Shown: piece by piece, positions 12,001 to 64,000 of the stretch
Layout: every line of letters starts with the position of its first letter
How positions within the stretch are numbered: position 1 is the first letter of the stretch
Assembly: GCF_035084215.1 (NCBI RefSeq)
Contig: NC_090353.1
Span: 19,902,001 to 19,966,000 of the forward strand
Length of the DNA stretch: 64,000 nt
Origin: Heptranchias perlo
Taxonomy: Eukaryota
Direction of reading: 5' to 3'
Program-made: the position numbers and the translations under genes
The notes under the pieces: model-generated
What the model saw: the letters and a program-made list of their open reading frames with translations, nothing else
Databases searched by the model: none
Told to the model about the DNA's origin: nothing

Positions 12001-15000
12001 GCTCCTGCTCACACAGTAAGCTACTTCTGAAAACTCACACACAGGAAGGGGGTATTTGCGTTGCTGCCGCAACTATTTAAAGACTACCAGAGCCATTTTG
12101 TAGGGAAGTCACGTTTTCAGCCAACAAATAGCGTCTGCGTATAATTGACGAAGCGCAACAGGAATCAAATTCTCCACTTTGCAGATGATGAAGTGGAGGT
12201 CCTGCTGCATTAGATGGGTGTGGGACGGCTGCCCTGTTTGGCACTCCAGGACACCCCCCCACCAGAGGAGAACAGGATAGCTTGCCAATGAAGAGATTGC
12301 AGACAAGGTCAGTGCTGTGTACACTTGACCTGGGACCAAATGTGGAAGATGATAGACCTTAAGAAAAATACCAAGGTAAAGCTACCAACAGTACCATATG
12401 CCAGTTAGATGGCTCAAGTATATGTATCACAAAGAGTTACCTGTCAACATTTACTGCTGTCCCATGTTACAGCAGGTCAAATCTTCAAGCTGCAATGTAC
12501 AACTGGAACTCTTATTACACTGACATCTTGACACAAGCCATAGCCCAGAAACTATGCTCCTTTATGGGGTAAAATTCAATGTTGGCACAGCAGGGGGATT
12601 TAATGTTAGGAGCAGAATCCGGTTCTGCCAGACTTTTACCCATGCAATTCCCACACAGCAGACCTGGGGTGAGGGTGGATGTTTCTCTGCACAGCCCTTC
12701 ATATCCTAACCTCAGCTTGGACTGTATATGGGGGTTCCTGGGCCCTCCGGAAATCCGGCTAGATATGCTGCCGTAAGGCCCATCGGCAGAAAGCAGGCAT
12801 AGGTGCTGCTCTGAGCTGCAAGAAGGCGCTACCTAAAACAGATAAAATGGTATTTGACTTGGTTGCTCCTGTAGAACCATTACTGATGCAGGCACCTGCC
12901 GCTATTACAGTAATGACCTTGCCCTTGGTGGCAGGGAGGCAAAAGCGGCAGGCAGAAGTTCTGCATCATCACACGTTCCGTGGGGGAATTTCTGCTTTCA
13001 TGTTTTAATACAAATAAGCTGCACAGTGTAAGTTCATTGACTCACACACATCATGTCATGCAGTGGCAATTCTGTGTCACAGTGTGTGCTCTTCAAGCTT
13101 CCAACATCTCAATATTCAATCTCTGTTAGCAGGAAAAGTTGTTTAAAAAAGGTGGGAGTAAATATAGGCAGGGTAAGGACCCCAATTTTCTGCCCATTGA
13201 CAGCTTTTGAGATGGCCACAGTTGACAATATTGGCAGCAACAGCACAGATGGATTGGGGACGCTGAAGCCCAAGCTCAGATCGAGCACCATCCTGCTATT
13301 GTTACATGTTCTGACTGTCCTCATTCGCTTTTACATAGGCACAAGCACAACACCATGACATGCAGTATATTGCCATGTAAGCACAGTTTAAAGCATTGTC
13401 TTGCAGCTAGCATTTTAAGGTATGGTCCTTATCTATTTATTCATGCTTGCCACAGCATCCATTCAACAGTCGAGTGCAATAGAATCAAGCAGTACAACAC
13501 TGTATTGCTTGTATTACTCCACTTGTCACAAGTGCATCTGTAAGGACTACCAAATGGAGGTGGCAGTGGAGGAGCTGGAACCTACTGAAAGAGGCCATTC
13601 AGCCCATCGTGCCAGTGAAAAAGCTATCCAATTAATCCCACTCCCATGCTCTTTCCCCATGGCCCTGCAAATTTTTCCTTTCAATTACATTTCCAGTTCC
13701 TTTTTGAAAGTTACTATTGGATCTGCTTGCACCATCCTTTCAGGCAGTGCATTCCAGATCATAACAACTCGCTGCGTAAAAGAAATTCTCCTCAGCTCCC
13801 CACTAGTTCTTCTGCCAATTATCTTAAATCTGTGTCTTCTGGTTACCAACCCTCCTGCCAGTAGAAACAGTTTATCCTTATTTACTCTATCAACACTGTT
13901 CATAATTTTGAACACCTCAATTAAATCTCCCCTTAACCTTCTCTGCTCTAAGGAGAAAAATCCCAGCTTCTCTACTCTCTCCACATAACTGAAGTCCCGC
14001 ATCCCTGGTATTCTGGTAAATCTCCTCTGCACCCTCTCCAAGGCCTTGACATCCTTCCTAAAGTGTGGTGCCTGGAAGTGATCATAATACTCTAGCTGAG
14101 GGCTAACCAGTGATTTATACACGATTAGCATAATTTCCTTGCTTTTGTACTCCATGGGGGTGATTTTAAACCCCAAGAACGGGTGGGCAGGAGGCGGGTG
14201 GGAGTTGAAAACAGTTATTTTTTGGGTTGCGACCACAACCCAGCTTTATTTCCGGGTTTAACATCGGCGTGGAAAAGTACAGGCTTCCCACTGGGAATGC
14301 CAAGTCCAAAGATTTTGCGGTTGCGACCCGAAAAAACTACTGTTTTCAACTCCCACCTGCCCCCAACCCACCCGTTCTTGGGGTTTAAAATTACCCCCAA
14401 TGCCTCTATTTATAAAGCCAAGGACCCTGTATGCTTTTTCACAGCCGTATCAATTTATCCTGCCACCTTCAAAGATGTAGAGAGCCATAATACAGGACTT
14501 CACAGACCTAATTGCTGCTGTTGGGTATGCTTCTACATAGATCAGTGGTCACAGTGTCTAGCTGTAGAAGCATGGCTGGAGTAGGCATGGATGTGGCTGC
14601 TTTCTCTCAAGGAGACAACCCATTCAGTCTACCTGTGAAAGTGACAATAGATGCTCCAGAAAACAGGCAAGACCAGTCAGGCACCACAGTAAGAGATGTC
14701 GCTGAAGCAACTGAAGGACCATCTCAGAGCCACCACAAGAAAGCAACCTTAATTCCCATGGAAAGATTAGAAAATGAAGCGCTCACTATCAATGCGCTCA
14801 TTCAAATCAACTAAGCATGCATAATGAAACTCTTAAGCAAAATGTTTGGGAGCTGTATCAGCTGGCGGAAAATAGGAGCCAAGAAAGGACACACTCCATA
14901 TTTCAAGTGAAATTAAACTGCTAATGAAAGTGTGCTAGAATATTCACCACGTGTTATTGAAGTGACTGGTGCTATTGAGATAGTCGTTGATTCAGTTGTC

Positions 15001-18000
15001 GATGCTTGAGTAGAGCTCTCCGAATTTGTTGGTATTGTTGTACCTGTTGAGGTGGGAGCCAATGTAGAGGTCGGTGCTGCAGTGGAGGTCTGTGTACTTG
15101 CAGTCGATGTTTCTGTTGATGCTGTGAAAGAAGTTGATGATGTTATTGAGGCAAATATAAAACTTAGAACAACTTACTATTAATTATGCATTAAAGACAA
15201 ATTGCTCTGTATTTTTAACACCTACATATAATGCGAATTACGCAGTAATATAACATATTCATGTTGCAACAGCAGCAGAGTGTTAAGTGACAATTGCATG
15301 TGATTCTCTGCTGCATTATTGTAGCTGACAACACACAACAATAATATTTTGTTATTATTTCTTAGATATGTTTCCAAACTTGCATTGATTGAAAGGAATC
15401 AGAATTAAACTGCTGATAAAAGTGTGCTGGTATACTCACCGCTTGTAGAAGTGAGTGGTGTTGTTGAGATTGCTGCTGATTCAATTGTCAGTGTTTGAGA
15501 GGAGCTCTCTCTAGTTGTTGGTACTGTTGCATTTGTTGAGGCTGGAGCTGATACAGAGGTCGGTGCTGCGGTGGAGGTTTGTGAACTTGCAGTTGATTCT
15601 TCTGCTGTTGCTGCGAAAGTAGTTGATGTCATTATTGAGGCAAACATAAAACTTGGAACAACATACTATGAATTATGCATTAAAGACAAATTGCTCTGTA
15701 TTTATAATACCGAGATAGCAAGTAAATTACGGAGTAATATAGCATATCCATGTTGCAACAGCAGCAAAGTGTCAAGTGACAAATATATAAGATTCTCCGC
15801 TGCATTATTGTAGCTGACAACATACCACAACAATATTTTGTTATTATTTCTCAAATATGTTTCTAAACTTGCATTGGATTGAAAGGAATCAGAATGAAAC
15901 TGCTGATAAAGGTGTACTGGTATACTCACCACTTGTTGAAGTGAGTGGTGTGGTTGAGATTGCTGTTGATTCAGTTGTCACTGTTTGAGAAGTGATCTCT
16001 GTCGTTGTCGGTACTGTTGTACTTGTTGAGGCGGGAGCTGATGTGGAGGTTGATGCTACAGTGGGGGTCTGTGTACTTGCAGACGTTGCTTCTATTGTTG
16101 CTGCGAAAGTAGTTGATGTCATTATTGAGGCAAACATAAAACTTGGAATAACATACTACAAATTTTGCATTAAAGACAAATTACTATCTATTTTTAACAC
16201 CCAGATATAATGCAAATTATTTGGTATTATAACATATCCATGTTGCAACAGCAGCAAAGTGTCAGGTGACAAATGCACAAGATTCTCCGCTGCATTATTT
16301 TAGCTGACAACACACCAGAACAATATTTTGTTATTATTTCTCAAATATGTTTCTAAACTTGCATTCGATTGAATGGTTTTTGAATGAAACTGCTGATAAA
16401 GGTATACTAGTAAACTCACCACTTGTTGTTGAAGAGACTGGTGTTGTTGAGATTGTTGTTAATTCTGTTGTCGTTGCTTGAGTAGAGCTGCCTGTAGTTG
16501 ATGGTATTGTACTTGTTGAGGCGAGAGCTGATGTAGAGGTCGGTGCTGCAGTGGAGGCCTGTGTAATTGCAGTCGATGCTTCTGTTGTTGCTGTGAAAGT
16601 ATCTGATGTCATTATTGAGGCAAACATAAAACTTGGAACAACGTACTATGAATTATGCAATAAAGACAAACTGCTCTGTATTTTAATACCTAGATACAAT
16701 ATAAATTACTCAGTAATATAACAAATTCATGTTGCAACATCAGCAGAGATTCAAGTGACAATTGCATGTGATTCTCCACAGCACAATTGTAGCTGACAAT
16801 ATACCGCAATAATATTTTGTTATCATTTCTCATGTATATTTCTAAACTTGCATTAGATTGAAAGGAATCAGAATTAAACGGCTGATAAAAGTGTACTATT
16901 ATAGAATCATAGAACCATAGAATGTTATGGCACAGAAGGAGGCAATTCGGCCCACCGTGTCTGTGCCGTCCGAAAAAGAGCTATCCAGCTTCATCCCACT
17001 TTCCAGCTCTTGGTCCGTAGCCATGCAGGTTCTGGCACTTCAAGTGCACATCCAAGTACCTTTTAAATGAGTTGAGGGTTTCTGCCTCTACCACCCTTTC
17101 AGGCAGTCAGTTCCAGACCCCCCACCACCCTCAGGATGAAAAAATTCTCCTCAGCTCCCCTCTAATCCTTCTACCAATTACTTTAAATCTATGCCCTCTG
17201 GTTACTGACCCCTCTGCTAAGGGAAATAGGTCCTCCCTATCCACTCTATCTAGTCCCATCATAATTTTATATACCTCAATTAAATCTCCCCTCAGCCTCC
17301 TTTGTTCCAAAGAAAACAACCCCAGCCTATCCAATCTTTTCTCATAGCTAAAATTCTACAGCCCTGGCAACATCCTTTTAACTCTTCACTGTACCCTCTC
17401 TAGTGCAATCACATCTTCCCTGTAATGTGATGACCAGAACTGTATGCAGTACTCAAGCCTAACCAATGTTTCATACAGTTCTAGCATAACCTCCCTGCTC
17501 TTATATTCTATGCCTCGGCTAATAAAGATGATGTGGAGATGCCGGTGATGGACTGGGGTGGACAAATGTAAGGAATCTTACAACACCACGTTATAGTCCA
17601 ACAGTTTGTTGGACTATAACCTGGTGTTGTAAGATTCCTTACATTCGTCTAATAAAGGAAAGTATCCCGTATGCCTTTTTAACCACCTTATCTACCTGTC
17701 CTGCTACCTTCAGGGATCTGTGGACATGCACTCCAAGGTCCTTTTGTTCCTCTACACCTCTCAGTATCCTTCCATTTACTGTGTACTCCCTTGCCTTGTT
17801 TGCCCTCTCCGAATGCATTACCTCACACTTCTCTGAATTGAATTCCATTTGCCACTTTTCTGCCCAGCTGACCAGTCCATTGATATCTTTCTGCAGTCTA
17901 CAGCTTTCCTCCTCACCATCAACCATGTGGCCAACTTTTGTATCATCTGCAAACTTCTTGATCAAGACCCCACATTCAAGTCAAAATTATTAATATATAC

Positions 18001-21000
18001 CACAAAAAGCATGGGACCTAGTACTGAGCCTTACGGAACCCCACTGGAAACAGCCTTCCAGTCGCAAAAACCCCCGTCAACTTTTGCTTCCTGCCACTGA
18101 GCCAATTTTGGATCCAACTTGCCACTCTCCCTTGGATCCCATCGGCTTTCACTTTTTTGACCAGTCTGCCACGTGGGACCTTGTCAAAAGCCTTGCTAAA
18201 ATCCATGTACACTACATCAAACACGTTACCCTCAACCCTCCTTGTTACCTCCTCAAAAAATTCTATCAAGTTAATCAGACACGACCTTCCTTTAACAAAT
18301 CCATGCTGACTGTCCTTGATTAACCCGTGCCTTTCTAAATGACAATTTATGCTGTCCCTCAGAATTGATTCCAATAATTTGCCCACGGCCGAGGTTAGAC
18401 TGACTAGCCTATAATTACTCGGTCTATCTCTTTCTCCCATTTTAAACAATGGTACAATGTTAGCAGTCCTCCAATCATCTGGCACAACGCCTGTAGCCAG
18501 AGAGGATTGGAAAATGATGGTCAGAGCCTCCGCTATTTCCTCCCTTGCTTCTTTTAACAGCTTGGGATAATTTTCATTCGGACCTGGTGACTTTCAAAAA
18601 TGCTAAACCCCTTAATACTTCCTCTCCCACTATGTTTATCCCATTTAATATTTCTCTCCCCTCATCCTCCTTAACTACAATCTCTGCATTGTCCCCCTCT
18701 TTTGTGAAGTCAGATGCAAAGTATTCCTTAAAAACCATACCCACATCTTCCACCTCCACATATTTAGACACCTTTTTGGTATCTAATAGGCCCTACTGTG
18801 TCCTTAGTTATCCTCTTTGCTGTTTATGTACTTATAAAATATTTTTTGGGCTTTCCTTACTTTTACTTGCCAGTATTTTTTCATGCCCTCTCTTTGCTTT
18901 CCTAATTTCCTTTTTAATTTCACCCCTACACTTTCTATACTCCTCTAGGCTTTCTGCAGCATTGAGCTCTCGGTGTCTGACACAAGCTTCCCTTTTTTGC
19001 CTAATCTTACCCTGTATGCTCCTTGTCATCCAGAGGAGGGCTCTAGATTTGGCAATCCTACCCATTTTCTTTGTGGGAACATGTTTATTCTGAACCCCTT
19101 GAATCTCCCCCTGGAATGCCTCCCACTGCTCTGACACTGATTTACCTTCAAGTGGCTGTTTCCAGTCCACTTTTGCGAAATCACTTCCCAGCCTAGTAAA
19201 ACTGGCCTTTCCCTAATTTAGAATTTTTACTCCTGTTCTATCTTTGTCCTTTTCCATAACTATGCTCAATCGAACTGAATTATGGGGCGACATTTTAGCA
19301 CCCGCTATCGGGTGCGTTCCTCCCGGGGGGGCTCCGAAAATCAGAGAATCCCGGAGCGGGACCGGAGCCCGCCCTGAACCCGCGCACTTCCGGGTTCCCC
19401 GCTGACGCGCCGGCGTGCGCGCGCAGCCCCCGTTGGTGAGAATCCCGCAGGCAATTAAAGCCAGCGGGATGCCACTTGAACCTATTTATTTAGGTATTTC
19501 AGGTCATTAACTGACCTGATTAAGGGATTATGTGAGGAGGGGTGGGATTTTAGAGCAAACTGGGACTGTTTCCCACACTGGGGGAAACACTCCCAGTTCA
19601 AATGGACGTGTTGCAGCGTCAGCCTGTGGCAGCTGCAAAGGTCCATTTGACAGGTCGGGGGGGGGGGAGACCCTCACCCATTGCAGGAGGCCACTCTGTC
19701 ACTTGGGACAAAGTTTGGCCTCCACCACCCTCCTCCTGACAGTCAAAGTCACCGACCTGCACACTTACCCCGGGGTCCGGAGACATGTACCTACCTTGCG
19801 GACCCCCTCAGATGTACATCTTGCGGATGGGGGCCGCCGTAGCTGCAGTCATGACCTCCTCGGAGGGCGAACAGCATCACCAGCCGATCCAGCCTCGCCA
19901 TCCACGCCGTCCACCTCTGACACGTGGAGCTCCACAACAGAGTGCTGTGACACATCCACCTGTACAGCAGGAGGGAGGGCTACCACAGAGAGAGATGCGT
20001 CGCAGAGGGCACTACCCTCGCCACAGGGTCCACAGACCGAGGCTCAGCCTCCTGGACCTCTCTGAGCAGCAGTGCACACGGAGGCTCAGAGTCACTCGAC
20101 ATGTAGTCGTGGACATCTGCAGCCTCTTTCATGCCAAGCTGCTCCTGCCTGGCCCGAGCACCATCTTCTTACCTGTCGCTGTCAAAGTCACCACTGCCCT
20201 CAACAACTTCTCCTCCGCATCCTTCCAGGGTGCAACCGGGGACATCGCCGATGTCTCTCAGTCGTCTGCGCGAAAGAGCCCTGCAAATACACCTACACCC
20301 ACTCTGCAGTGACACAATGGGTGGCATCAGTTGTGGGTCCTCATCGTGATCCTCAGGAGAGGGCATTATTGCACAAACCAGACAGGATTCGCGAAGACAT
20401 GGCAGTAGTGGTGCCAATATAATATGTAATGTGAGTTGTTCAGAAATTCAATATAAGTAACACCCATGACAAACCCTCAAACACCCTTGAGCATCCCCTT
20501 CATGCTCACAACACGTTTGCCTTATGCTGCCTACTGCACATATGTGATGTATGCCCTGTGGATGCAGCACAGGTAGTGGCAGGTTGAGTCAGGCTGGCCG
20601 TGAAAGAGATGCACGAGAGGGTGAGTATGAGATAGAGCCATGAGATTGTATGAGGATTGGGTTGAGTGGTAGTGGCGGGATGAGTACTGGTGAGGTGAGT
20701 AGGTGCAGGTAAGATGAGGATGAGGTTTGAGTGGGTATGAGGGGTGATGTGACAGAGTAGTGTTGGCAGTGCTGAAGGAGATGTGGGGTGGGGGCGGTGA
20801 TGTGGCAGACGGAGTGTAGGGGAAAGACTACGTGCACTCACTTTGGCTGACCTACTGAGGTCATTGGAGCGCCTCCTGCACTGTATGCAGGTGGGCGATA
20901 TGTTGGTTGCACTGGTGACCTCCTCTGCCACCTCAAGCCAGGCCTTCCTGGTGGCAGAGGCAGGCCGCTTCCTCCCGCACCTCCTCCTCACCCCATGTAT

Positions 21001-24000
21001 TGATACCTGGAGTGAGGCATCATTAAACTGGGAGCAGCCTTCCCCCTGGGCTGCTCCATGCTGTAATTTTTGCTATTTGTTGCAGCATCTGTCAGTGGAG
21101 GACTGCCCCTTTAAATAGAGCTCCTCCAGCTGACAGATCTTTCTGCGCATGCGCAGCCCACCCGACGTGCAGATCAGCAGTGGGGAACCCGGAGGACAAG
21201 GTAAGTGGATCCAATTAGTGGATTGGATGCTACAATCGCGCGGGAAGCTGACTAATTTCACCGGGCGCGTTACCCACCGCCCGATAGCCCCCCCGCCGGG
21301 AACCCGCAGCCCTGCTAACATCGGGCCCATGATCACTACCACCAAAATGCTCTCCCTCTGATACTCCTTCCACCTGCCCAGATTCATTCCCTAAAACTAA
21401 ATCCAGAACTGTCCCATCTCTTGTTCAGCTTGCAACGTACTGGCTTAAAAAGTTCTCCTGAATGCAATTTAAGAATTCTGTGCCATCTATACCTTTTGCA
21501 CTGATTGTTTCCCAGTTAATATAAGGGTAGTTGAAATACCCTACTATTACTGCCCTATTGTTTTTGCACTTCTCAGAAATTTATACTGACCACCGGTTGA
21601 AGTGAGTGGTGTTGTTGAGATTGTTGTTGATTCAATTGTCGATGTTTCAGAAGTTGTTGGTACTATTGTACTTGTTGAGGCGGGAGCTGATGCAGAGATC
21701 GGTGCTGCAGTGGAGGTCTGTGTACTTGTAGTCGATGTTTCTGTTGTTGCTGTGAAAGTAACTGACGTCATTATTGAGGCAAACATAAAACTTGGAAAAA
21801 CATCCTATGAATTCTGCATACCAGACATATTGCTTTGTATTTTTAGGACCTAGCAAAAATGGAAATTACTCAGTAATATAACATATCCATGTTGCAGCAA
21901 CAGCAAAGTATCAAATGACAATTGCTCCGCTACATCATTGTAGCTGACAACATACCACAACAATATTTTGTTATTATTTCTCAAATATGTTTCTAAACTT
22001 GCATTAGATTAAGGTATTCGAATGAAACTGCTGATAACGGTATACTCACCACTTGTTGAAGAGACTGGCGTTGTTGAGATTGTTGTTAATTTAGTTGTCG
22101 TTGCTTGAGGAGACATGTCTGTAGTTGATGGTATTGTACTTGTTGAGGCGGGAGCTGACGTAGTGGTCGGTGCTGCAGTGGAGGTCTGTGTACTTGCAGT
22201 CGATGTTTCTGTTGATGCTGCGATAGTAGTTGACGTGATTATTGAGGCAAACATAAAATTTGGAACAACATACGATGAATTTTGCATTAAAGACAAATTG
22301 CTCTGTGTTTTAATACCTATATATAATGCAAATTACTCAGTAATATAGCACATCCATGTTGCAAGAGCAGCAGAGTGTCAAGTGACAATTGCAAGTGATT
22401 CTCTGCAGCACAATTGGTGCTGACAACATACCCCAACAATATTTTGTTATTATGTCTCAACTTATGTATGTTTCTCAACTTGCATTGATTAAAATTAATC
22501 AGAATTAAACTGCTGATAAAAGTGTACTGGTACACTCACCACTTGTTGAAGTGATTGGTGTTGTTGAAATTGCTGTTGATTCAATTGCCGATGTTTCAGA
22601 GGTGCTCTCTGTAGTTGTTGGTGCTGTCGTACTTGTTGAGGCGGGAGCTAATATAGAGGTCAGTGCTGCAATGGAGGTCTGTGTACTTGTATTCGATGCT
22701 TCTGTTGATGCTGTGATAGTAGTTGATGTCGTTATTGAGGGAAACTTAAAACAACATGCTACAAATTTTGCATTAAAGACAAATTGCTACGTATTTTTAA
22801 TATCTTGATATAATGCAAATTATTCAGTAATATAACATATCCACGTTGCAACAGCAGTAACGTGTCAATTGACAAATGCATAAAACTGTCCGCTACATTA
22901 TTTCAGCTAAGAACAGACCACAACAATATTTTGTCATTACTTCACAAATATGTTTCTAACCTTGCATTAGATTGAAATGTATTTAAATGAAACTGCTGAT
23001 AAAGTTTACTAGTATACTCACTTATTGTTGTTGAAGAGAGTGGTGTTGTTGAGATTGTTGTTAATCCAGTTGTCGTTGCTTGAGAAGAGCTGTCTGCAGA
23101 TGATGGTATTGTACTTGTTGAGCCGGGAGCTGAAGTAGAGGTCGGTGCTGCAATGGAAGTCTGTGTACTTGGAGTCGATGCTTTTATTGATGCTGCGATA
23201 GTAGTTGATGTGATTATTGAGGCAAACTTAAAACTTGGAACAATATACTACGAATTTTGCATTCAAGACAAATTGCAATGTATTTTTTTACATCGAGATA
23301 GAAAGCAAATTACTCAGTAATATAACACATCCATGTTGCAACAGCAGCAAAGTGTCAAGTGACAAATGCACAAGATTCTCTGCAGCATTATTGTAGCTGA
23401 CAACACACCACAGCAATATTTTGTTATTATTTCTCAAATATGTTTCTAACCTTGCATTAGATTGAAAGGAATTCGAAAGAAACTGCTGATAAAAATATAG
23501 TAGTATACCAACCACTTGTTGTTGAAGAGATTGTTGTTGTTTCGATTCTTGATAATTCAGTTGTCGTTGCTTGAGTAGAGCTGCCTGTAGTTGTTGGTAT
23601 TGTACTCATTGAGATGGCAGTTAATGTTGAGGATGGTTCTGCAGTGGTGGTCTGTGTATTTGCAGTCAATGCTTCTGTTGTTGCTGTGGGTGCAATTGAT
23701 GTCGTTATTTAGGCAAACATAAAACGTGGAAGAACTCACTTCAAATAGTGCATTGAAGACAAATTGCTATGTATTTTTAACACCTAAATATAATGCAAAT
23801 TATTCAGCAATATAACATTAAAGATTCAAAGGCAGCAAAGTAGAAGGTGAGAATTGCACATGATTGCAGCTGATAACACACCACAACAATATCTTGTTAT
23901 TATTTCTCAAATATGTTTCTAACCTGATATGAGATTGAAAGGGATTCAAATGGAACTGCTGATAAAGGTTTCCTAGTATACTCACCGCTTGTTGTTGATG

Positions 24001-27000
24001 AGTCTGGCGTTGTTGAGATTGTTGTTAATTCAGTTGTCGTTGCTTGAGTAGAGCTGTCTGTAGTTGATGGTATTGTACTTGTTGAGGCAAGAGCTGATGA
24101 AGACGTTGGTGCTGCAGCGGAGGTCTGTGTATTTGCAGTCGATACTTCTGTTGTTGCTGCGAAAGCAGTTGATGTCATGATGGAGGCAAACATAAAACTT
24201 GGAACAAATACTACAAATGATGCATTAAAGATGAATTGCTCTGTATTTTTAATACCGACATAGAATGCAAATTACTGTTTAATATAACATTCATGTTGCA
24301 ACAGCAGAAGAGTGTTAAGTGACAATTGCATGTGCTTCTCCACAGCACAATTGTAGCTGACAACATACCACAATAATACTTTGTTATTATTTTTTAAGTA
24401 CGTTTCTAAACTTGCATTGATTGAACGGAATCAGAATTTAAATGCTGATAAAAGTGTGCTGGTATACTCACCATTTGTTGAAGTGAGTGGTGTTGTTGAG
24501 ATTGCTGTTGATTCAAATGTCAATGTTTGAGAAGTGCTCTCTGTAGTTGTAGCGACTGTTGCACTTGTTGAGGCTGGAGCTGATATCGAGGTCGGTGCTG
24601 CAGCGGAGGTCTGTGTACTTGCAGTGGATGCTTCTGTTGTTGCTGTGAAAGTAACTGATCTCAGTATTGTGGCAAACATCAAACTTGAAAAAACATACCA
24701 TGAATTATGCATGAGAGACAAATTGCAATATATTTTTAACCTCCAGATAGAATGCAAATTATTCAGCAATATAACATATCCATGTTGCAACAACAGCAAA
24801 ATGTCAAGTGGCAAAGTCATAAGATTCTCTGCTGAATTATTGTAGCTGACAACACACGACAATAATATTTTGTTATTATTGCTCAAGTATGTTTCTAAAC
24901 TTGCATTAGATTAAACAGAATCTGAATTAAACTGCTGATAAAAGTGTGCTGGTATACTCACCACTTGTAGAAATGAGTGGTGTGGTTGATATTGCTGTTG
25001 ATTCAATTGTCAATGTTTGTGAGGTGCTATCTGCAGTTGTCGGTACTGTTGTACTTGTTGAGGCGGGAGCTGATATAGAGGTCGGTGCTGCGGTGGAGGT
25101 CTGTGTACTTGCAGTGGATGCTTCTGTTGTTGCTGTGAAAGTAACTGATCTCATTATTCTGGCAAACATAAAACTTGAAAAAACATACTATAAATTATGC
25201 AGAGACAAATTGCTTTGTATTTTTAACCTCCAGATATAATGCAAATTACTGAGTAATATAACATATTCATGTTGCAACAGCAGCAGAATGTCAAGTGACA
25301 ATGCCATCAGATTGTCTGCTGAATTATCGTAGCTGACAACATACCACAATAATATTTTGTTATTATTGCTCGAGTATGTTTCTAAACTTCCATTCGATTG
25401 AACGGAATCAGAATTACACTGCTGATAAAAGTGTGCTGGTATACTCACCACTTGTTGAAGTGAGTGGTGTGGTTGAGATTGCTGTTGATTCAATTGTCAA
25501 TGTTTGAGAAGTGCTCTCTGCAGTTGTTGCTACTGTTGCACTTGTTGAGGCGGGAGCTGATACAGAGGTCGCTACTGCAGTGGAGGTCTGTGTACTTGTA
25601 GTTGATGCTTCTGTTGTTGCTGTGAAAGTAATTGATATTATTGTGGCAAACATAAAACTTGGAACAACATACTATGAATTATGCATTTAAGACAAACTTC
25701 TCTGTATTTTTCAGACCTATATAGAATGTAAATTAGTTACAAATATAACATACCCATGTTGCAACAGCAGCAGAGTGTCAACTGACAATTGCACGTGATT
25801 CTTCGTAGCACAATTGTAGCTGACAACACACGACAATAATATTTTGTTATTATTGCTCAAGTATGTTTCTAAACTTGCATAAGATTAAACAGAATCTGAA
25901 TTAAACTGCTGATAAAAGTGTGCTGGTATACTCACCACTTGTTGAAATGAGTGGTGTGGTTGATATTGCTGTTGATTCAATTGTCAATGTTTGTGAGGTG
26001 CTCTCTGCAGCTGTCGGTACTGTTGTACTTGTTGAGGCTGGAGCTGATATCGAGGTCGGTGCTGCGGTGGAGGTCTGTGTACTTGCAGTGGATGCTTCTG
26101 TTGTTGCTGTGAAAGTAACTGATCTCATTATTGTGGCAAACATAAAACTTGAAAAAACATACCATGAATTATGCATGAGAGACAACTTGCTATGTATTTC
26201 CAACCTCTAGATATGATGCAAATTACTCAGTAATAAAACATATCCACGTTGCAACAACAGCAAAATGTCAAGTGACAAAGCCATAAGATTCTCTGCTGAA
26301 TTATTGCAGCTGACAACAAACCACAATAATATTTTGTTATTATTGCTCGAGTATGTTTCTAAACTTGCATTAGATTGAATGGAATCAGAATTAAACTGCT
26401 GATAAAAGTGTGCTGGTATACTGACCACTTGTAGAAGTGAGTGGTGTGGTTGAGATTGCTGTTGAATCAATTGTCAATGTTTGAGAGGAGCTCTCTGCAG
26501 TTGTCGGCACTGTTGTACTTCTTGAGGCTAGAGCTGATGTTGAGGTCGGTGCTGCAGCGGAGGTCTGTGTACTTGTAGTTGATACTTCTGTTGTTGCTGT
26601 GAAAGTGATTGATCTTATTATTGAGGCAAACATAAAACTTGGAACAACATACTACGAATTATGCATTTAAGACAAACTGCTCTATTTATTTTTCATACCT
26701 ATATGCAATGTAAATTAGTTACAAATATAACATATCCATGTTGCAACAGCAGCAGAGTGTCAACTGACAATTGCACGTGATTCTTCGCAGCACAACTGTA
26801 GCTGACAACACACGACAATAATATTTTGTTATTATTGCTCAAGTTTGCTTCTAAACTTGCATTAGATGAAACAGAATCTGAATTAAACTGCTGATAAAAG
26901 TGTGCTGGTACACTCACCGCTTGTAGAAGTGAGTGGTGTGGTTGATATTGCTGTTGATTCAATTGTCATTGTTTGTGAGGTGCTCTCTGCAGTTGTCGGT

Positions 27001-30000
27001 ACTGTTGTACTTGTTGAGGCGGGAGCTGATGTCGAGGTCGTTGCTGCGGTGGAGGTCTGTGTACTTGCAGTGGATGCTTCTGTTGTTGCTGTGAAAGTAA
27101 CTGATCTCATTATTGAGGCAAACATAAAACTTTAAAAAACATACTATGAATTATGCAGAGACAAATTGCTTTGTATTTTTAACCTCTAGATATAATGCAA
27201 ATTACTCAGTAATATAACATATCCATGTTGCAACAACAGCAAAATGTCAAGTGACAAAGCCATAAGATTCTCTGCTGAATGATTGTAGCTGACAACAAAT
27301 CACAACAATATTTTGTTATTATTGCTCGAGTATGTTTCTAAACTTGCATTAGATTGAATGGAATCGAATTAAACTGCTGATGAAAGTGTGCTGGTATACT
27401 GACCACTTGTTGAAGTGAGTGGTGTGGTTGAGATTGCTGTTGATTCAATTGTCAATGTTTGAGAAGTGCTCTGTGTAGTTGCTGCGACTGTTGCACTTGT
27501 TGAGGCGGGAGCTGATGTTGAGGTCGGTGCTGCAGCGGAGGTCTGTGCACTTTTAGTTGATGCTTCTGTTGTTGCTGTGAAAGTAATTGATCTTATTATT
27601 GAGGCAAACATGAAACTTGGAACAACATACTACGAATTATGCATTTAAGACAAACTTCTCTGTATTTTTCATACCAATATAGAATGTAAATTAGTTCCAA
27701 ATATAACATATCCATGTTGCAATAGCAGCCGAGCGTCAACTGACAATTGCACGTGATTTACGGTTGAGAAAGGCATGGATGTTAGGGAACTTGGGGAAAT
27801 AAATAGTGATGTCTTGAGGAGTGTACATATTACAGAGAGGGAGGTGCTGGAAGTCTTAACGCGCATCAAGGTAGATAAATCTCCGGGACCTGATGAAATG
27901 TATCCCAGGACATTATGGGAGGTTCGGGAGGAAATTGCGGGTCCCCTAGCAGAGATATTTGAATCATCCACCGCTACAGGTGAGGTGCCTGAAGATTGGA
28001 GGGTAGCAAATGTTGTGCCTTTGTTTATGAAGGGCGGCAGGGAAAAGCCTGGGAACTACAGACCGGTGAGCCTGACATCTGTAGTGGGTAAGTTGTTCGA
28101 GGGTATTCTGAGGGACAGGATCTACAGGCATTTGGCGAGGCAGGGACTAATTAGGAACAGTCAGCATGGTTTTGTGAGAGGAAAATCATGTCTCACGAAT
28201 TTGATTGAGTTTTTTGAAGGGGTAACCAAGAAGATAGATGAAGGCTGTGCAGTAGACGTGGTCTACATGGACTTCAGCAAATCCTTTGACAAGGTACCGC
28301 ATGGTAGGTTGTTACATAAGGTTAAATCTCATGGGATCCAAGGTGAGGTAGCCAATTGGATACAAAATTGGCTTGACGACAGAAGACAGTGGGTGGTTGC
28401 AGAGGGTTGTTTTTCAAACTGGATGCCTGTGTCCAGCGGTGTGCCTCAGGGATCGGTGCTGGGTCCGCTGTTATTTGTTATTTATATTAATGATTTGGAT
28501 GAGAATTTAGGAGGCATGGTTAGTAAGTTTGCAGATGACACCAAGATTGGTGGCATTGTGGACAGTGAAGAAGGTTATCTAGGATTGCAACGGGATCTTG
28601 ATAAATTGGGCCAGTGGGCCGATGAATGGCAGATGGAGTTTAATTTAGATAAATGTGAGGTGATGCATTTTGGTAGATCGAATCGGGCCAGGACCTACTC
28701 CGTTAATGGTAGGGCGTTGGGGAGAGTTATAGAACAAAGAGATCTAGGAGTACAGGTTCATAGCTCCTTGAAAGTGGAGTCACAGGTGGATAGGGTGGTG
28801 AAGAAGGCATTCGGCATGCTTGGTTTCATTGGTCAGAACATTGAATGCAGGAGTTGGGATGTCTTGTTGAAGTTGTACAGGGCATTGGTGAGGCCACACT
28901 TGGAGTACTGTGTACAGTTCTGGTCACCCTATTATAGAAAGGATATTATTAAACTAGAAAGAGTGCAGAAAAGATTTACTAGGATGCTACCGGGACTTGA
29001 TGGTTTGACTTATAGGGAGAGGTTAGACAGACTGGGACTTTTTTCCCTGGAGAGTAGGAGGTTAAGGGGTGATCTTATAGAAGTCTATAAAATAATGAGG
29101 GGCATAGATAAGGTACATAGTCAAAATCTTTTCCCAAAGGTAGGGGAGTCGAGAACGAGGGGGCATAGATTTAAGGTGAGAGGGGAGAGATAAAAAAGTG
29201 TCCAGAGGGGCAATTTTTTCACTCAAAGGGTGGTGAGTGTCTGGAACGAGCTGCCAGAGGCAGTAGTAGAGGCGGGTACAATTTTGTCTTTTAAAAAGCA
29301 TTTGGACAGTTACATGGGTAAGATGGGTATAGAGGGATATGGGCCAAGTGCAGGAAATTGCGACTAGCTTAGTGGTATAAACTGGGCGACATGGACATGT
29401 TGGGCCGAAGGGCCTGTTTCCATGTTGTAACTTCTATGATTCTATGATTCTTCGCAGCACAACTGTAGCTGACAACACACGACAATAATATTTTGTTATT
29501 ATTGCTCAAGTATGTTTCTAAACTTGCATTAGATTAAACAGAATCTGAATTAAACTGCTGATCAAAGTGTGCTGGTATACTCACCACTTGTTGAAGTGAG
29601 TGGTGTTATTGAGATTGCTGTTGATTCAATTGTCAATGTTTGTGAGATGCTCTCTGCAGTTGTCGGTACTGTTGTACTTGTTGAGGCTGGAGCTGATATA
29701 GAGGTCGGTGCTGCGGTGGAGGTCTGTGGACTTGCAGTGGATGCTTCTGTTGTTGCTGTGAAAGTAACTGATGTCATTGTTGAGGCAAACATAAAACTTG
29801 GAACAACATACTACGAATTATGCATTTAAGATAAGTTGCTCTGTATTTTTAAAACCGATATAGAATGCAAATTACTGAGTAATATAACATATCCATGTTG
29901 CAACAGCACCAGAGCGTCAACTGACAATTGCATGTGATTCTTCGCAGCACAATTGTAGCTGACAACAAACCACAATAATATTTTGTATTATTGCTCGAGT

Positions 30001-39000: not shown

Positions 39001-42000
39001 ACAGAGGTCATTGCTGCGGTGGAGGTCTCTGTACTTGCAGTGGATGCTTCTGTTGTTGCTGTGAAAGTAACTGATCTCATTATTGTGGCAAACATAAAAC
39101 TTGAAAAAACATACTATGAATTAAGCAGAGACAAATTGCTTTGTATTTTTAACCTCTAGATATAATGCAAATTACTGAGTAATATAACATATTCATGTTG
39201 CAACAGCAGCAGAATGTCAAGTGACAAAGCCATAAGATTCTCTGCTGAATTATTGTAGCTGACAACAAACCACAATAATATTTTGTTATTATTGCTCGAG
39301 TTTGTTTCTAAACTTGCATTAGATTGAATGGAATCAGAATTAAACTGCTGATAAAAGTGTGCTGGTATACTGACCACTTGTTGAAATGAGTGGTGTGGTT
39401 AAGATTGCTGTTGATTCAATTGTCACTGTTTGAGAGGTGCTCTCTGTAGTTGTCGGGACTGTTGTACTTGTTGAGGCGGGAGCTGATGTCGAGGTCATTG
39501 CTGCGGTGGAGGTCTGTGTACTTGCAGTGGATGCTTCTGTTGTTGCTGTGAAAGGAACTGATCTCATTATTGAGGCAAACATAAAATTTGGTAGAACACA
39601 CTGAATTATACATTAAGGACAAATTGCTCTGTATTTTTAACACCTAGATACAATGCAAATTACTGAGTAATATGACATATTCATGTTGCAACAGCAGCAG
39701 ATTGTCAACTGATAATTGCACGTGATTCTTCACAGCACTATTGCAGCTGACAACACACAACAACAATATTTTGTTACTTTTTGCTGAAGCATATTTGCAA
39801 ACTTGCATTGGAGAGAATGGAATCAGAATGAAACGGTTCATAAGGGTGCACTAGTCTACACACCACTTGTTGTTGAAGTGAGTTGTGTTGATGAGATTGT
39901 CGTTGATTCACTTGTCGAAGCTTGAGTCGTGCTTTCTGTGGTTGTTGGTACTGTTGTAATTGTTGCGGCGGGAGCTGATGTCGAGGTCGCTACTGCAGTG
40001 GAGGTCTGTGTACTTGCAGTGGATGCTTCTGTTGTTGCTGTGAAAGTAACTGATCTCATTATTTTGGCAAACATAAAACTTGAAAAAACATACTATGAAT
40101 TATGCATGAGAGACAATTTGCTTTGTATTTCCATCCTCCAGATATGATGCAAATTACTCAGTGATATAACATATCCATGTTGGACCAACAGCAAAATATC
40201 AAGTGACAAAGCCATAAGATTCTCTGCTGAATTATTGTAGCGACAACAAACCACAATAATATTTTGTTATTATTGCTCGAGTATGTTTCTAAACTTGCAT
40301 TCGATTGAATGGAATTAGAATTAAACTGCTGATAAAAGTGTGCTGGGATACTCACCACTTGTTGAAGTGAGTGGTGTGGTTGATATTGCTGTTGATTCAA
40401 TTGTCAATGTTTGTGAGGTGCTCTCTGCAGTTGTAGGTACTGTTGTACTTGTTGAGGCTGGAGCTGATACAGAGGTCGGTGCTGCGGTGGAGGTCTGTGT
40501 ACTTGCAGTGGATGCTTCTGTTGTTGCTGTGAAAGCAACTGATCTCATTATTGTGGCAAACATAAAACTTGAAAAAACATACTATGAATTATGCGGAGAC
40601 AAATTGCTTTGTATTTTTAACCTCTGGATATAATGCAAATTACTGAGTAATATAACTTATCCATGTTGCAACAGCAGCAGAATGTCAAGTGACAAAGCCA
40701 TAAGATTCTCTGCTGAATTATTTTAGCTGACAACATTCGACAATAATATTTTGTTGTTATTGCTCGAGTATGTTTCTAAACTTGAATTAGATTGAATGGA
40801 ATCAGAATTGCACCGCTGATAAAAGTGTGCTGGTATACTCACCACTTGTTGAAGTGAGTGGTGTGGTTAAGATTGCTGTTGATTCAATTGTCATTGTTTG
40901 TGAGGTGCTCTCTGCAGTTGTCGGTACTGTTGTACTTGTTGAGGCGGGAGCTGATGTCGAGGTCGTTGCTGCGGTGGAGGTCTGTGTACTTGCAGTGGAT
41001 GCTTCTGTTGTTGCTGTGAAAGTAACTGATCTCATTATTGAGGCAAACATAAAACTTTAAAAAACATACTATGAATTATGCAGAGACAAATTGCTTTGTA
41101 TTTTTAACCTCTAGATATAATGCAAATTACTGAGTAATATAACATATCCATGTTGCAACAACAGCAAAATGTCAAGTGACAAAGCCATAAGATTCTCTGC
41201 TGAATGATTGTAGCTGACAACAAATCACAACAATATTTTGTTATTATTGCTCGAGTATGTTTCTAAACTTGCATTAGATTGAATGGAATCGAATTAAACT
41301 GCTGATGAAAGTGTGCTGGTATACTGACCACTTGTTGAAGTGAGTGGTGTGGTTGAGATTGCTGTTGATTCAATTGTCAATGTTTGAGAAGTGCTCTGTG
41401 TAGTTGCTGCGACTGTTGCACTTGTTGAGGCTGGAGCTGATACAAAGGTCGGTGCTGCAGCGGAGGTCTGTGCACTTGTAGTTGATGCTTCTGTTGTTGC
41501 TGTGAAAGTAATTGATCTTATTATTGAGGCAAACATGAAACTTGGAACAACATACTACGAATTATGCATTTAAGACAAACTTCTCTGTATTTTTCATACC
41601 AATATAGAATGTAAATTAGTTCCAAATATAACATATCCATGTTGCAATAGCAGCCGAGCGTCAACTGACAATTGCACGTGATTTACGGTTGAGAAAGGCA
41701 TGGATGTTAGGGAACTTGGGGAAATAAATAGTGATGTCTTGAGGAGTGTACATATTACAGAGAGGGAGGTGCTGGAAGTCTTAACGCGCATCAAGGTAGA
41801 TAAATCTCCGGGACCTGATGAAATGTATCCCAGGACATTATGGGAGGTTCGGGAGGAAATTGCGGGTCCCCTAGCAGAGATATTTGAATCATCCACCGCT
41901 ACAGGTGAGGTGCCTGAAGATTGGAGGGTAGCAAATGTTGTGCCTTTGTTTATGAAGGGCGGCAGGGAAAAGCCTGGGAACTACAGACCGGTGAGCCTGA

Positions 42001-45000
42001 CATCTGTAGTGGGTAAGTTGTTCGAGGGTATTCTGAGGGACAGGATCTACAGGCATTTGGCGAGGCAGGGACTAATTAGGAACAGTCAGCATGGTTTTGT
42101 GAGAGGAAAATCATGTCTCACGAATTTGATTGAGTTTTTTGAAGGGGTAACCAAGAAGATAGATGAAGGCTGTGCAGTAGACGTGGTCTACATGGACTTC
42201 AGCAAATCCTTTGACAAGGTACCGCATGGTAGGTTGTTACATAAGGTTAAATCTCATGGGATCCAAGGTGAGGTAGCCAATTGGATACAAAATTGGCTTG
42301 ACGACAGAAGACAGTGGGTGGTTGCAGAGGGTTGTTTTTCAAACTGGATGCCTGTGTCCAGCGGTGTGCCTCAGGGATCGGTGCTGGGTCCGCTGTTATT
42401 TGTTATTTATATTAATGATTTGGATGAGAATTTAGGAGGCATGGTTAGTAAGTTTGCAGATGACACCAAGATTGGTGGCATTGTGGACAGTGAAGAAGGT
42501 TATCTAGGATTGCAACGGGATCTTGATAAATTGGGCCAGTGGGCCGATGAATGGCAGATGGAGTTTAATTTAGATAAATGTGAGGTGATGCATTTTGGTA
42601 GATCGAATCGGGCCAGGACCTACTCCGTTAATGGTAGGGCGTTGGGGAGAGTTATAGAACAAAGAGATCTAGGAGTACAGGTTCATAGCTCCTTGAAAGT
42701 GGAGTCACAGGTGGATAGGGTGGTGAAGAAGGCATTCGGCATGCTTGCTTTCATTGGTCAGAACATTGAATGCAGGAGTTGGGATGTCTTGTTGAAGTTG
42801 TACAGGGCATTGGTGAGGCCACACTTGGAGTACTGTGTACAGTTCTGGTCACCCTATTATAGAAAGGATATTATTAAACTAGAAAGAGTGCAGAAAAGAT
42901 TTACTAGGATGCTACCGGGACTTGATGGTTTGACTTATAGGGAGAGGTTAGACAGACTGGGACTTTTTTCCCTGGAGAGTAGGAGGTTAAGGGGTGATCT
43001 AAAAGAAGTCTATAAAATAATGAGGGGCATAGATAAGGTACATAGTCAAAATCTTTTCCCAAAGGTAGGGGAGTCGAGAACGAGGGGGCATAGATTTAAG
43101 GTGAGAGGGGAGAGATAAAAAAGTGTCCAGAGGGGCAATTTTTTCACTCAAAGGGTGGTGAGTGTCTGGAACGAGCTGCCAGAGGCAGTAGTAGAGGCGG
43201 GTACAATTTTGTCTTTTAAAAAGCATTTGGACAGTTACATGGGTAAGATGGGTATAGAGGGATATGGGCCAAGTGCAGGAAATTGCGACTAGCTTAGTGG
43301 TATAAACTGGGCGACATGGACATGTTGGGCCGAAGGGCCTGTTTCCATGTTGTAACTTCTATGATTCTATGATTCTTCGCAGCACAACTGTAGCTGACAA
43401 CACACGACAATAATATTTTGTTATTATTGCTCAAGTATGTTTCTAAACTTGCATTAGATTAAACAGAATCTGAATTAAACTGCTGATCAAAGTGTGCTGG
43501 TACACTCACCGCTTGTAGAAGTGAGTGGTGTTATTGAGATTGCTGTTAATTCAATTGTCAATGTTTGTGAGATGCTCTCTGCAGTTGTCGGTACTGTTGT
43601 ACTTGTTGAGGCTGGAGCTGATATAGAGGTCGGTGCTGCGGTGGAGGTCTGTGGACTTGCAGTGGATGCTTCTGTTGTTGCTGTCAAAGTAACTGATGTC
43701 ATTGTTGAGGCAAACATAAAACTTGGAACAACATACTACGAATTATGCATTTAAGATAAGTTGCTCTGTATTTTTAAAACCGATATAGAATGCAAATTAC
43801 TGAGTAATATAACATATCCATGTTGCAACAGCACCAGAGCGTCAACTGACAATTGCACGTGATTCTTCGCAGCACAATTGTAGCTGACAACAAACCACAA
43901 TAATATTTTGTATTATTGCTCGAGTATGTTTCTAAACTTGCATTAGATTGAATGGAATCAGAATTGCACCGCTGATAAAAGTGTGCTGGTATACTCACCA
44001 CTTGTTGAAGTGAGTGGTGTGGTTAAGATTGCTGTTGATTCAATTGCCGATGTTTCAGAGGTGTTCTCTGCAGTTGTTGGTGCTAATGTACTTGTTGAGG
44101 CGGGAGCTGATCTCGAGGTCGTTGCTGCAATGGAGGTCTGTGTACTTGCAGTGGATGCTTCTGTTATTGCTGTGCAAGTAACTCATCTCATTATTGTGGC
44201 AAACATAAAACTTGAAAAAACATGCTATGAATTATGCATTTAAGACAAACTGCTCTATTTATTTTTCATACCGATATAGAATGTAAATTAGTTACAAATA
44301 TAACATATCCATGTTGCAACAGCAGCAGAGTGTCAACTGACAATTGCACGTGATTCTTCGCAGCACAACTGTAGCTAACAACAAACCACAATAATATTTT
44401 GTTGTTATTGCTCGAGTATGTTTCTAAACTTGCATTAGATTGAATGGAATCAGAATTAAACTGCTGGTAAAAGTGTGCTGGTATACTCACCACTTGTTGA
44501 AGTGAGTGGTGTGGTTGATATTGCTGTTGATTCAATTGTCAATGTTTGTGAGGTGCTCTCTGCAGTTGTAGGTACTGTTGTACTTGTTGAGGCGGGAGCT
44601 GATATAGAGGTCGGTGCTGCGGTGGAGGTCTGTGTACTTGCAGTGGATGCTTCTGTTGTTGCTGTGAAAGTAACTGATCTCATTATTGTGGCAAACATAA
44701 AACTTGAAAAAACATGCTATGAATTATGCAGAGACAAATTGCTTTGTATTTTTAACCTCTAGATATAATGCAAATTACTGAGTAATATAACTTATCCATG
44801 TTGCAACAGCAGCAGAATGTCAAGTGACAAAGCCATAAGATTCTCTGCTGAATTATTTTAGCTGACAACATTCCACAATAATATTTTGTTATTATTGCTC
44901 GAGTATGTTTCTAAACTTGCATTAGATTGAACGGAATCAGAATTGCACCGCTGATAAAAGTGTGCTGGTATACTCACCACTTGTTGAAGTGAGTGGTGTG

Positions 45001-63763: not shown

Positions 63764-64000
63764 CTGTGAAAGTAACTGATCTCATTATTGAGGCAAACAT
63801 AAAATTTGGTAGAACACACTGAATTTTTCATTAAGGACAAATTGCTCTGTATTTTTAATACCTAGATACAATGCAAATTACTGAGTAATATAACATATTC
63901 ATGTTGTAACAGCAGCAGATTGTCAACTGATAATTGCACGTGATTCTTCACAGCACTATTGCAGCTGACAACACACAACAACAATATTTTGTTACTTTTT

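Follow-up and report, generated by a model that had tools for sequence, protein, structure and literature searches.

A MUC16-like mucin gene of the shark Heptranchias perlo with a PTS stalk region built from 124 small symmetric exons

The repeat-exon array

The window analysed here, a stretch of 64,000 nucleotides from Heptranchias perlo, carries on its minus strand, between 14948 and 63763, a PTS array of 84 repeat exons that are 159-174 nt long, lie in phase 1 at both ends and together encode 4,796 aa; apart from the long introns described below, a related intron of about 316-321 nt comes after each of them. A motif scan located 82 of these exons and two more, 23683-23513 and 21749-21591, were added by reading the sequence; a length of 171 nt was found in 69 of them and 174 nt in 13, while one exon each has 168 and 159 nt. 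An earlier, sequence-only reading of the same DNA had counted at least 84 exons and about 4,800 aa and had considered the array to be open at the window edge, which proved to be the case. When 600 kb of the flanking genome were included, the array comprised 124 exons and 7,079 aa: it crosses the window end within an intron (63764..64000, minus strand), continues with 40 further repeat exons (C32:19966081-19985291, minus strand) and ends outside the window at the extended coordinate 83291. (Coordinates prefixed C32 are those of the contig and extended ones are those of the window with its flanks.) Tandem Repeats Finder returned a period of 487-490, which agrees with the unit of about 490 bp that had been described.

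Across the whole array, the AG and GT ends and a length that is divisible by three are present in all 124 exons, as the sequence-only reading had noted for the copies that it measured. In the phase-1 frame no exon contains a stop, compared with 123 and 122 of the 124 exons in the other two frames. Reading on into the introns leads to an in-frame stop in each of the 123 introns, as had also been claimed, and the interpretation of the array as one giant, read-through exon was therefore rejected. The introns measure 300-322 nt, and hence there is no room for missed units; three introns are longer, two with 2,010 nt each and a third with 5,000 nt (16591..21590), which separates the last four repeat exons, and all of them contain inserts, made up of repeat elements in the third, and no exon remnant. 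The acceptor motif of the array had 71 exact matches in the genome, all of which were located within this array. A second in-frame AG lies at +9 in 122 of the 124 exon starts and can be regarded as a backup acceptor, although the joints in the RNA-like contigs described below use the first AG. In the 5'-most repeat exon the homologous AG is gone; an in-frame AG that lies 24 nt upstream would serve instead, giving a first exon of 195 nt. The earlier description of the copies as near-identical holds for nearest neighbours, whose median exon identity is 99.4%, but not for the 112 core exons as a whole, which form about eight interleaved classes with a mean pairwise identity of 89% and a minimum of 71%.

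Gene anatomy and MUC16 identity

The array is the PTS stalk region of a complete MUC16-like gene that consists of a signal exon, the array, eight SEA domains, a transmembrane exon and a tail. A search with a window exon as the query returned 17 proteins of cartilaginous fishes (P0001-P0017), 16 of which are named mucin-16-like, and one of these, P0004 from Heptranchias perlo itself, was 100% identical to a window exon. This database model can be aligned with the locus one exon at a time between 23609 and the tail and covers the last nine of the 124 repeat exons, two unique PTS exons, the eight SEA domains, a hydrophobic exon and the tail; it begins at an internal Met without a signal peptide. 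The mucin-16-like models of sharks, rays and a chimaera all appear to be cut at the N-terminus.

Downstream of the array, all on the minus strand, lie the two unique PTS exons, both in phase 1-1, which have 189 nt (11582..11770, the anchor exon) and 144 nt (10429..10572). They are followed by a first SEA module at 7068..9657 (exons 9657-9497, 9407-9340 and 7762-7593 and a short linker exon near 7094-7068) and a second one at 686..1968 (exons 1968-1808, 1670-1603 and 1047-878 and a short linker exon near 712-686). Outside the window, past its first position, follow the six further SEA domains, also on the minus strand, the transmembrane exon near C32:19873600 and the tail exon near 19869700. 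By inspection, the hydrophobic exon and the last exon of 30 aa encode a single transmembrane segment and a short tail. At the gene's other end, a comparison of the regions upstream of this gene (gene 1) and of its neighbour (gene 2) revealed an exon that is conserved in both. This predicted first coding exon (C32:19992339-19992408, extended 90408-90339, minus strand) has 70 nt, an ATG and a phase-1 donor, and encodes 23 hydrophobic residues that were judged by inspection to be signal-like. Spliced to all 124 repeat exons, it gave no stop in 7,165 codons. About 159 exons encode the predicted protein of about 8,400 aa, which includes a PTS stalk of about 7,200 aa with 4,083 Ser/Thr residues; at 0.25 nm per residue, this stalk would be about 1.8 micrometres long. 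The 7,079 aa of the array itself are composed of 35.7% T, 23.0% S, 14.6% A and 5.6% P.

The view that the repeat forms the PTS domain of a mucin was thus supported and could be sharpened to MUC16 using P0004 together with the Pfam and PDB comparisons. Pfam PF01390 (SEA) matched eight stretches in P0004, and three of the five PDB matches to the SEA region are named Mucin-16 (7SA9, 8GKL and 8VM1, E 4e-16 to 2e-14). The remaining two are 1IVZ, a mouse SEA domain that we take to be from Muc16, and another SEA protein at E 8e-4. The SEA domains therefore appear, judging by their sequence, to be of the MUC16 type. When a SEA exon was searched against the genome, all 20 matches fell inside this gene cluster. 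The neighbourhood includes MYO1F at C32:19.18 Mb (0.7 Mb away) and, at 19.31 Mb (0.6 Mb away), an ADAMTS10/6-like gene, both on the same strand, which matches the order of MUC16, MYO1F and ADAMTS10 in humans. With its tandem SEA domains, huge Ser/Thr/Pro-rich N-terminal domain, signal, transmembrane and tail exons and this neighbourhood, the gene would, by its predicted product, belong to the MUC16 mucins. In humans, MUC16 is the sole mucin with multiple SEA domains, according to the available part of PMC1552070. In the whale shark and the horn shark (P0002, P0012, P0014, P0029 and P0139; P0009, P0010 and P0140), several mucin-16-like models lie on contigs equal in length to those of MYO1F and/or ADAMTS10-like models, suggesting that the tandem cluster and its surroundings are common to sharks.

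Neighbouring paralogs

The cluster comprises three tandem MUC16-like genes, and each of them has transmembrane and tail exons of its own. Gene 2, whose array is located at C32:20046000-20068200 (extended 144100-166200), has a signal peptide that is identical to that of gene 1 and at least 45 units of the gene-1 family, with a unit identity of 76%. Eight of its 45 listed units have lost the homologous AG, with the frame still open and another in-frame AG 9 nt further downstream; among naturally occurring units, these eight are the strongest candidates for exon skipping or shifting. Gene 2 is likely to be expressed too, as the longest contig over 600-15400 has the 12 differences of the paralog in the unique exon.

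The array of gene 3 (C32:20180667-20267924, extended 278667-365924) has at least 231 symmetric PTS exons, of which 227 were found by motif and four by inspection. Exons of 117, 180, 162 and 177 nt form a four-exon unit of about 1.35 kb, which is repeated approximately 58 times with an identity of about 99%. All 227 motif-found exons have AG/GT ends, a length divisible by three and no stops (11,997 aa), and the other four keep the AG and the GT. The array of about 12,200 aa is interrupted by a 10.2-kb insert and is followed by about ten SEA domains. Gene 3 probably totals over 270 exons, which makes it larger than the gene-1 array, and a candidate signal exon was found for it. The units of gene 1 and gene 3 showed no DNA homology when compared with each other (best E 0.29). 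Additionally, two isolated SEA exons, one of the C-type and one of the A-type, lie between the gene-3 tail and the gene-2 signal exon (C32:20085900-20087800, extended 183923-185773) and are likely the remnant of a fourth gene copy.

Splicing in RNA-like contigs

The contigs came from three runs (X1-X3) of one sample in one study, none of which is on record as RNA and which were taken as RNA-like. They were compared with two regions, 600-15400 and 21570-24700, the latter of which covers seven of the 124 repeat exons, all at the diverged 3' edge (21591..24642, minus strand). Over 600-15400 the contigs join SEA exons with the introns absent; an X1 contig covers the anchor exon with 0 differences, and the contig piece at the second unique PTS exon matches the gene-2 copy. 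Contigs of repeat elements dominated this region, and among those listed none joins the array to exon 11770. Over 21570-24700, X1 and X2 show depth on the exons and zero in the intron-only bins, X3, in which next to none of the searched sequence words occurred, contributes no contigs, which is no sign of absence, and X1 has nothing on exon 24642. All six consecutive junctions were found at the predicted bases with CT..AC ends, that is, at exact GT-AG sites: X1 and X2 list five joints each and a loose end of X2 fits the sixth, with five of the six joints flagged "between: not known". The exon model of the sequence-only reading is thereby borne out, in that the RNA-like contigs are confined to exons, with joins where the model places them. 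The check that it had named, a junction from a core exon end to a core exon start, is present in the X2 contigs, even though the 112-exon core is too homogeneous to be resolved with contigs.

The same reading had suggested a possible splicing-based dial for the length and glycan content of the stalk. In a regulated form of it, cells would skip chosen sets of cassette exons and so adjust both to their tissue or state. Since all 124 exons are symmetric, any subset can be skipped in frame. Moreover, the donor classes differ in their U1 pairing score, from 6.5 to 8.5, and the weak donor GTGTGT occurs in 17 of the 20 class-C exons. An analogous proposal was already made for chicken Muc13, as far as the text available of PMC1552070 goes, and in one patient human MUC16 transcripts that were shorter by whole SEA repeats were reported in the accessible portion of PMC10829539. 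So far, the evidence neither supports nor refutes such a dial. Among the seven exons, one of which has a weak GTTGGT donor, the X1 and X2 contigs of this one sample contain none of the 15 possible skip joints, a count to be read with the fact that contigs drop rare forms and that skipping below the contig level would be missed. The GTGTGTA donor is carried by 17 exons, none of them in the 21570-24700 stretch. No broken exon was found among the 124, nor among the 231 of gene 3; one exon makes up less than 1% of the stalk, and near-identical flanks would offer a regulator little with which to tell the copies apart. Duplication alone demands phase-1 copies with lengths divisible by three, so that exon symmetry requires no skipping and, being a condition for any surviving duplicate, is no evidence for a dial. 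Regulated skipping is an improbable account of the array. The wider idea that sharks tune the height of a MUC16 glycocalyx by skipping sets of the 124 exons (at least 231 in the paralog), with the weak-donor classes as the variable steps of a titin-like dial, seems unlikely.

Several contig features bear on unregulated polydispersity, in which stochastic skipping or exon repetition, as in SmPoMuc, would spread the stalk lengths within one animal. One X1 contig (record 1) is listed as exon 21749 and, after it, the initial 86 nt of that exon once more, without a differing letter, and one core junction of X2 (record 13) fits no consecutive pair of the assembly, with three differences listed and the nearest pair at six; taken literally, the former is an exon repetition and the latter a non-consecutive junction. 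With 123 introns, even small errors per exon would shorten many molecules, and the in-frame products would presumably escape nonsense-mediated decay. There are precedents: SmPoMuc transcripts have more repeats than the genes (PMC2576457) and FIM-C.1 is polymorphic by splicing (PMC7177656), to go by the parts of both sources that were available. On closer comparison, the two joints that go back from 21591, one onto 24642 (55 nt) and one onto 21749 or 22217 (86 nt), land where the true next exon, 16590, which lies outside the compared stretch, fits best and would be placed. The literal reading of these joints as circles or exon repetition is therefore unlikely and was set aside, although for one of them 0 differences are listed where exon 16590 would lead one to expect seven, a mismatch that this explanation does not account for. 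A contig assembled at k=31 should not contain one 86-nt piece twice, which also counts against exon repetition. As for record 13, X2 carries letters that are missing from the assembly, and the odd junction may come from the other haplotype or a chimeric contig. We regard unregulated polydispersity as improbable. Relative to the assembly, X2 differs at window positions 22540-22649 and 24057, with five letters in exon 22710 and a core-like loose end. One changed X2 context is missing from all 664 kb, and a second haplotype with a conversion tract is possible.

Evolution of the array

Exon distances were calculated for all exons but the 195-nt first one (123 of the 124), and intron distances for the 119 of the 123 introns that remain without the first intron and the three long introns. 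The mean pairwise distance was 0.112 for exons and 0.136 for introns, and the two correlated at 0.69. There were 136 distinct non-synonymous variants against 136.8 expected at the intron rates and 57 synonymous variants against 58.0, while no real stops were observed against 5.9 expected. Two stops that were counted by the script were discarded, as they arose from splitting doubly changed codons and no exon has a stop. Gaps were multiples of three in three of three cases in the exons and in four of 21 in the introns (p 0.017), and AG/GT variants numbered 0, compared with an expectation of 5.0 (P about 0.007). The P values are approximate, as related copies were treated as independent. The data show cleanly that selection sees the frame, the stops and the splice sites and hardly the residues. 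Even if skipping were normal, a lost splice site might still do harm by way of cryptic splicing.

Blocks of 8.4, 6.3, 5.8 and 5.7 kb were duplicated with an identity of 97-98.5% at offsets of 28.5, 12, 16.5 and 19 units, and self-alignment offsets range from three to 32.5 units. A 5'-truncated LINE-type reverse-transcriptase fragment that is inserted in an intron (27757..29445, plus strand; RVT_1 E 9e-33) keeps an open frame of 478 codons. Its second copy, at about 41680-43370, is 99.8% identical and was duplicated with the block that is offset by 28.5 units. The two block copies differ from each other at three of 1,689 sites in the LINE and at 128 of 6,719 sites in the units (Fisher p 1.7e-9). 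Of 124 differing letters, 107-111 are found again in other units. This contrast, together with the recurring letters, indicates exchange between units; blocks of exons and introns were duplicated and have exchanged letters. Other LINE-type reverse-transcriptase fragments were observed in introns at 18018-18593, 13685-14245 and 3195-3991. A GC-rich insert at 19300-21350 in the 5-kb intron had no Pfam match, and its translations resemble a Harbinger-type transposon.

The divergence among the copies also bears on whether the core is mostly an over-expansion of the assembly or a run of unused pseudo-exons, so that only the 3' exons of the database model would be real. The few repeat exons in P0004 and the absence of X1 contigs from exon 24642 would fit this explanation. 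It is opposed by the number of distinct sequences (103 of 124 exons and 109 of 123 introns), by the 1.5-3.5% that separates the duplicated blocks, by the preservation of the frame and the splice sites throughout and by the core-type junctions in X2. It is also opposed by the start of P0004, which lies at an internal Met without a signal peptide, while a signal exon exists 5' of the array. This explanation is largely refuted, and we regard it as highly improbable.

The repeat profile was also compared with five proteins of other cartilaginous fishes. The two whale shark proteins, P0002 and P0014, have the same PTS repeat of about 55 aa (0 of 200 shuffles as good), whereas the proteins of Narcine, Pristis and Callorhinchus were not matched (41-127 of 200 shuffles as good). 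The similarity of the profiles suggests that the gene-1 repeat unit is likely to be old.

Discussion

The best explanation of the locus, to which we assign a probability of roughly 0.7, is that the 124 copies of exon plus intron are all spliced in, in order, and that the length of the stalk is set by the number of copies in the DNA. It builds on the anatomy of the gene, the spliced frame without stops, six junctions that are joined in order, the duplication of blocks and the exchange between units, all of which were observed; the RNA-like contigs reach seven of the 124 exons, all at the diverged 3' edge and from one sample. Unequal crossing-over and gene conversion would make the array grow and shrink and would homogenise it, as in the VNTRs of human mucins, yet with an intron inside each unit. 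Duplicates would survive only if they are in phase 1 and have a length that is a multiple of three, and each copy would be in use so frequently that selection purges stops, frameshifts and lost splice sites. From this one assembly we infer that the copy number varies between haplotypes. The predicted product, with its signal peptide, PTS stalk, eight SEA domains, one transmembrane helix and short tail, would be O-glycosylated along the stalk and may form a long glycocalyx barrier on an epithelium.

A literature search for MUC16 in sharks or elasmobranchs found no relevant paper within its reach, which excluded subscription papers, and as far as that search extended this is the first full-length view of a MUC16 locus in a cartilaginous fish. 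Most of this cluster, in which one gene has about 159 exons and another probably more than 270, has been missed by annotation. The novelty lies in the setting within a MUC16 gene, in the size of the arrays, with 124 and at least 231 exons, and in the layout that two unrelated repeat units share in one cluster, both of them using small symmetric exons. This sharing would fit the suggestion, made in 2006, that PTS domains were ancestrally multi-exonic and that the giant PTS exons of mammals are derived. Additionally, whether mucin length within an individual is controlled by splicing becomes cheaply testable: with 150-nt reads and 75-nt anchors, 121 of the 122 single skips can be identified.

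Comparison with known systems

The shark gene resembles human MUC16/CA125 in its large N-terminal domain, predicted to be glycosylated as in the human protein, its tandem SEA domains, membrane span and short tail, as described in the available part of PMC10829539, which gives 19 SEA repeats for the human protein compared with eight domains in the shark gene. Humans have one such gene and the shark has three in tandem. The PTS domain of human MUC16 is encoded by exons of very large size, in which the repeat is degenerate and the length almost fixed, whereas the shark has 124 small and recently homogenised exons. Large VNTR exons are used by human mucins including MUC16, according to the same excerpted source (PMC13345508), and this canonical layout of PTS repeats in one large exon is not found in the shark, in which every intron stops the frame. 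Human MUC19, considered as another mucin with one exon per repeat, was not borne out as such, as an uninterrupted central exon is cited in the text available of PMC13345508.

The principle of one exon per repeat was known, as the sequence-only reading had stated, but chicken Muc13 is a closer precedent than the Xenopus mucins to which it had pointed. Lang, Hansson and Samuelsson proposed in 2006, for chicken Muc13, both the control of length by splicing and an ancestral multi-exon design, and described a SEA-type membrane mucin with one PTS repeat per near-identical exon, the layout that we observed for all 124 shark exons, joined by splicing at six of six junctions. In the part of that source that was available (PMC1552070), chicken Muc13 has at least 12 repeats of 20 aa next to an assembly gap, compared with 124 of about 57 aa in the shark, and it belongs to another mucin family and has one SEA domain. 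Similar observations were made for SmPoMuc of Schistosoma mansoni, which shares the tandem unit of an exon and a highly conserved intron and the recombination between units. It differs in its 27-bp exon, in its number of copies (up to 20) and in the transcript variation that was revealed by cDNA sequencing (PMC2576457, as far as available), a variation that the contigs over the seven shark exons do not show. FIM-C.1 of Xenopus is likewise a vertebrate mucin that was reported, in the portion of PMC7177656 at hand, to be polymorphic via alternative splicing, but it is a secreted mucin with TFF modules.

Beyond the mucins, the array is reminiscent of the PEVK region of titin, a low-complexity spacer that is encoded by over a hundred small in-frame exons. 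Regulated skipping is established in titin, which marks the difference between the two systems.
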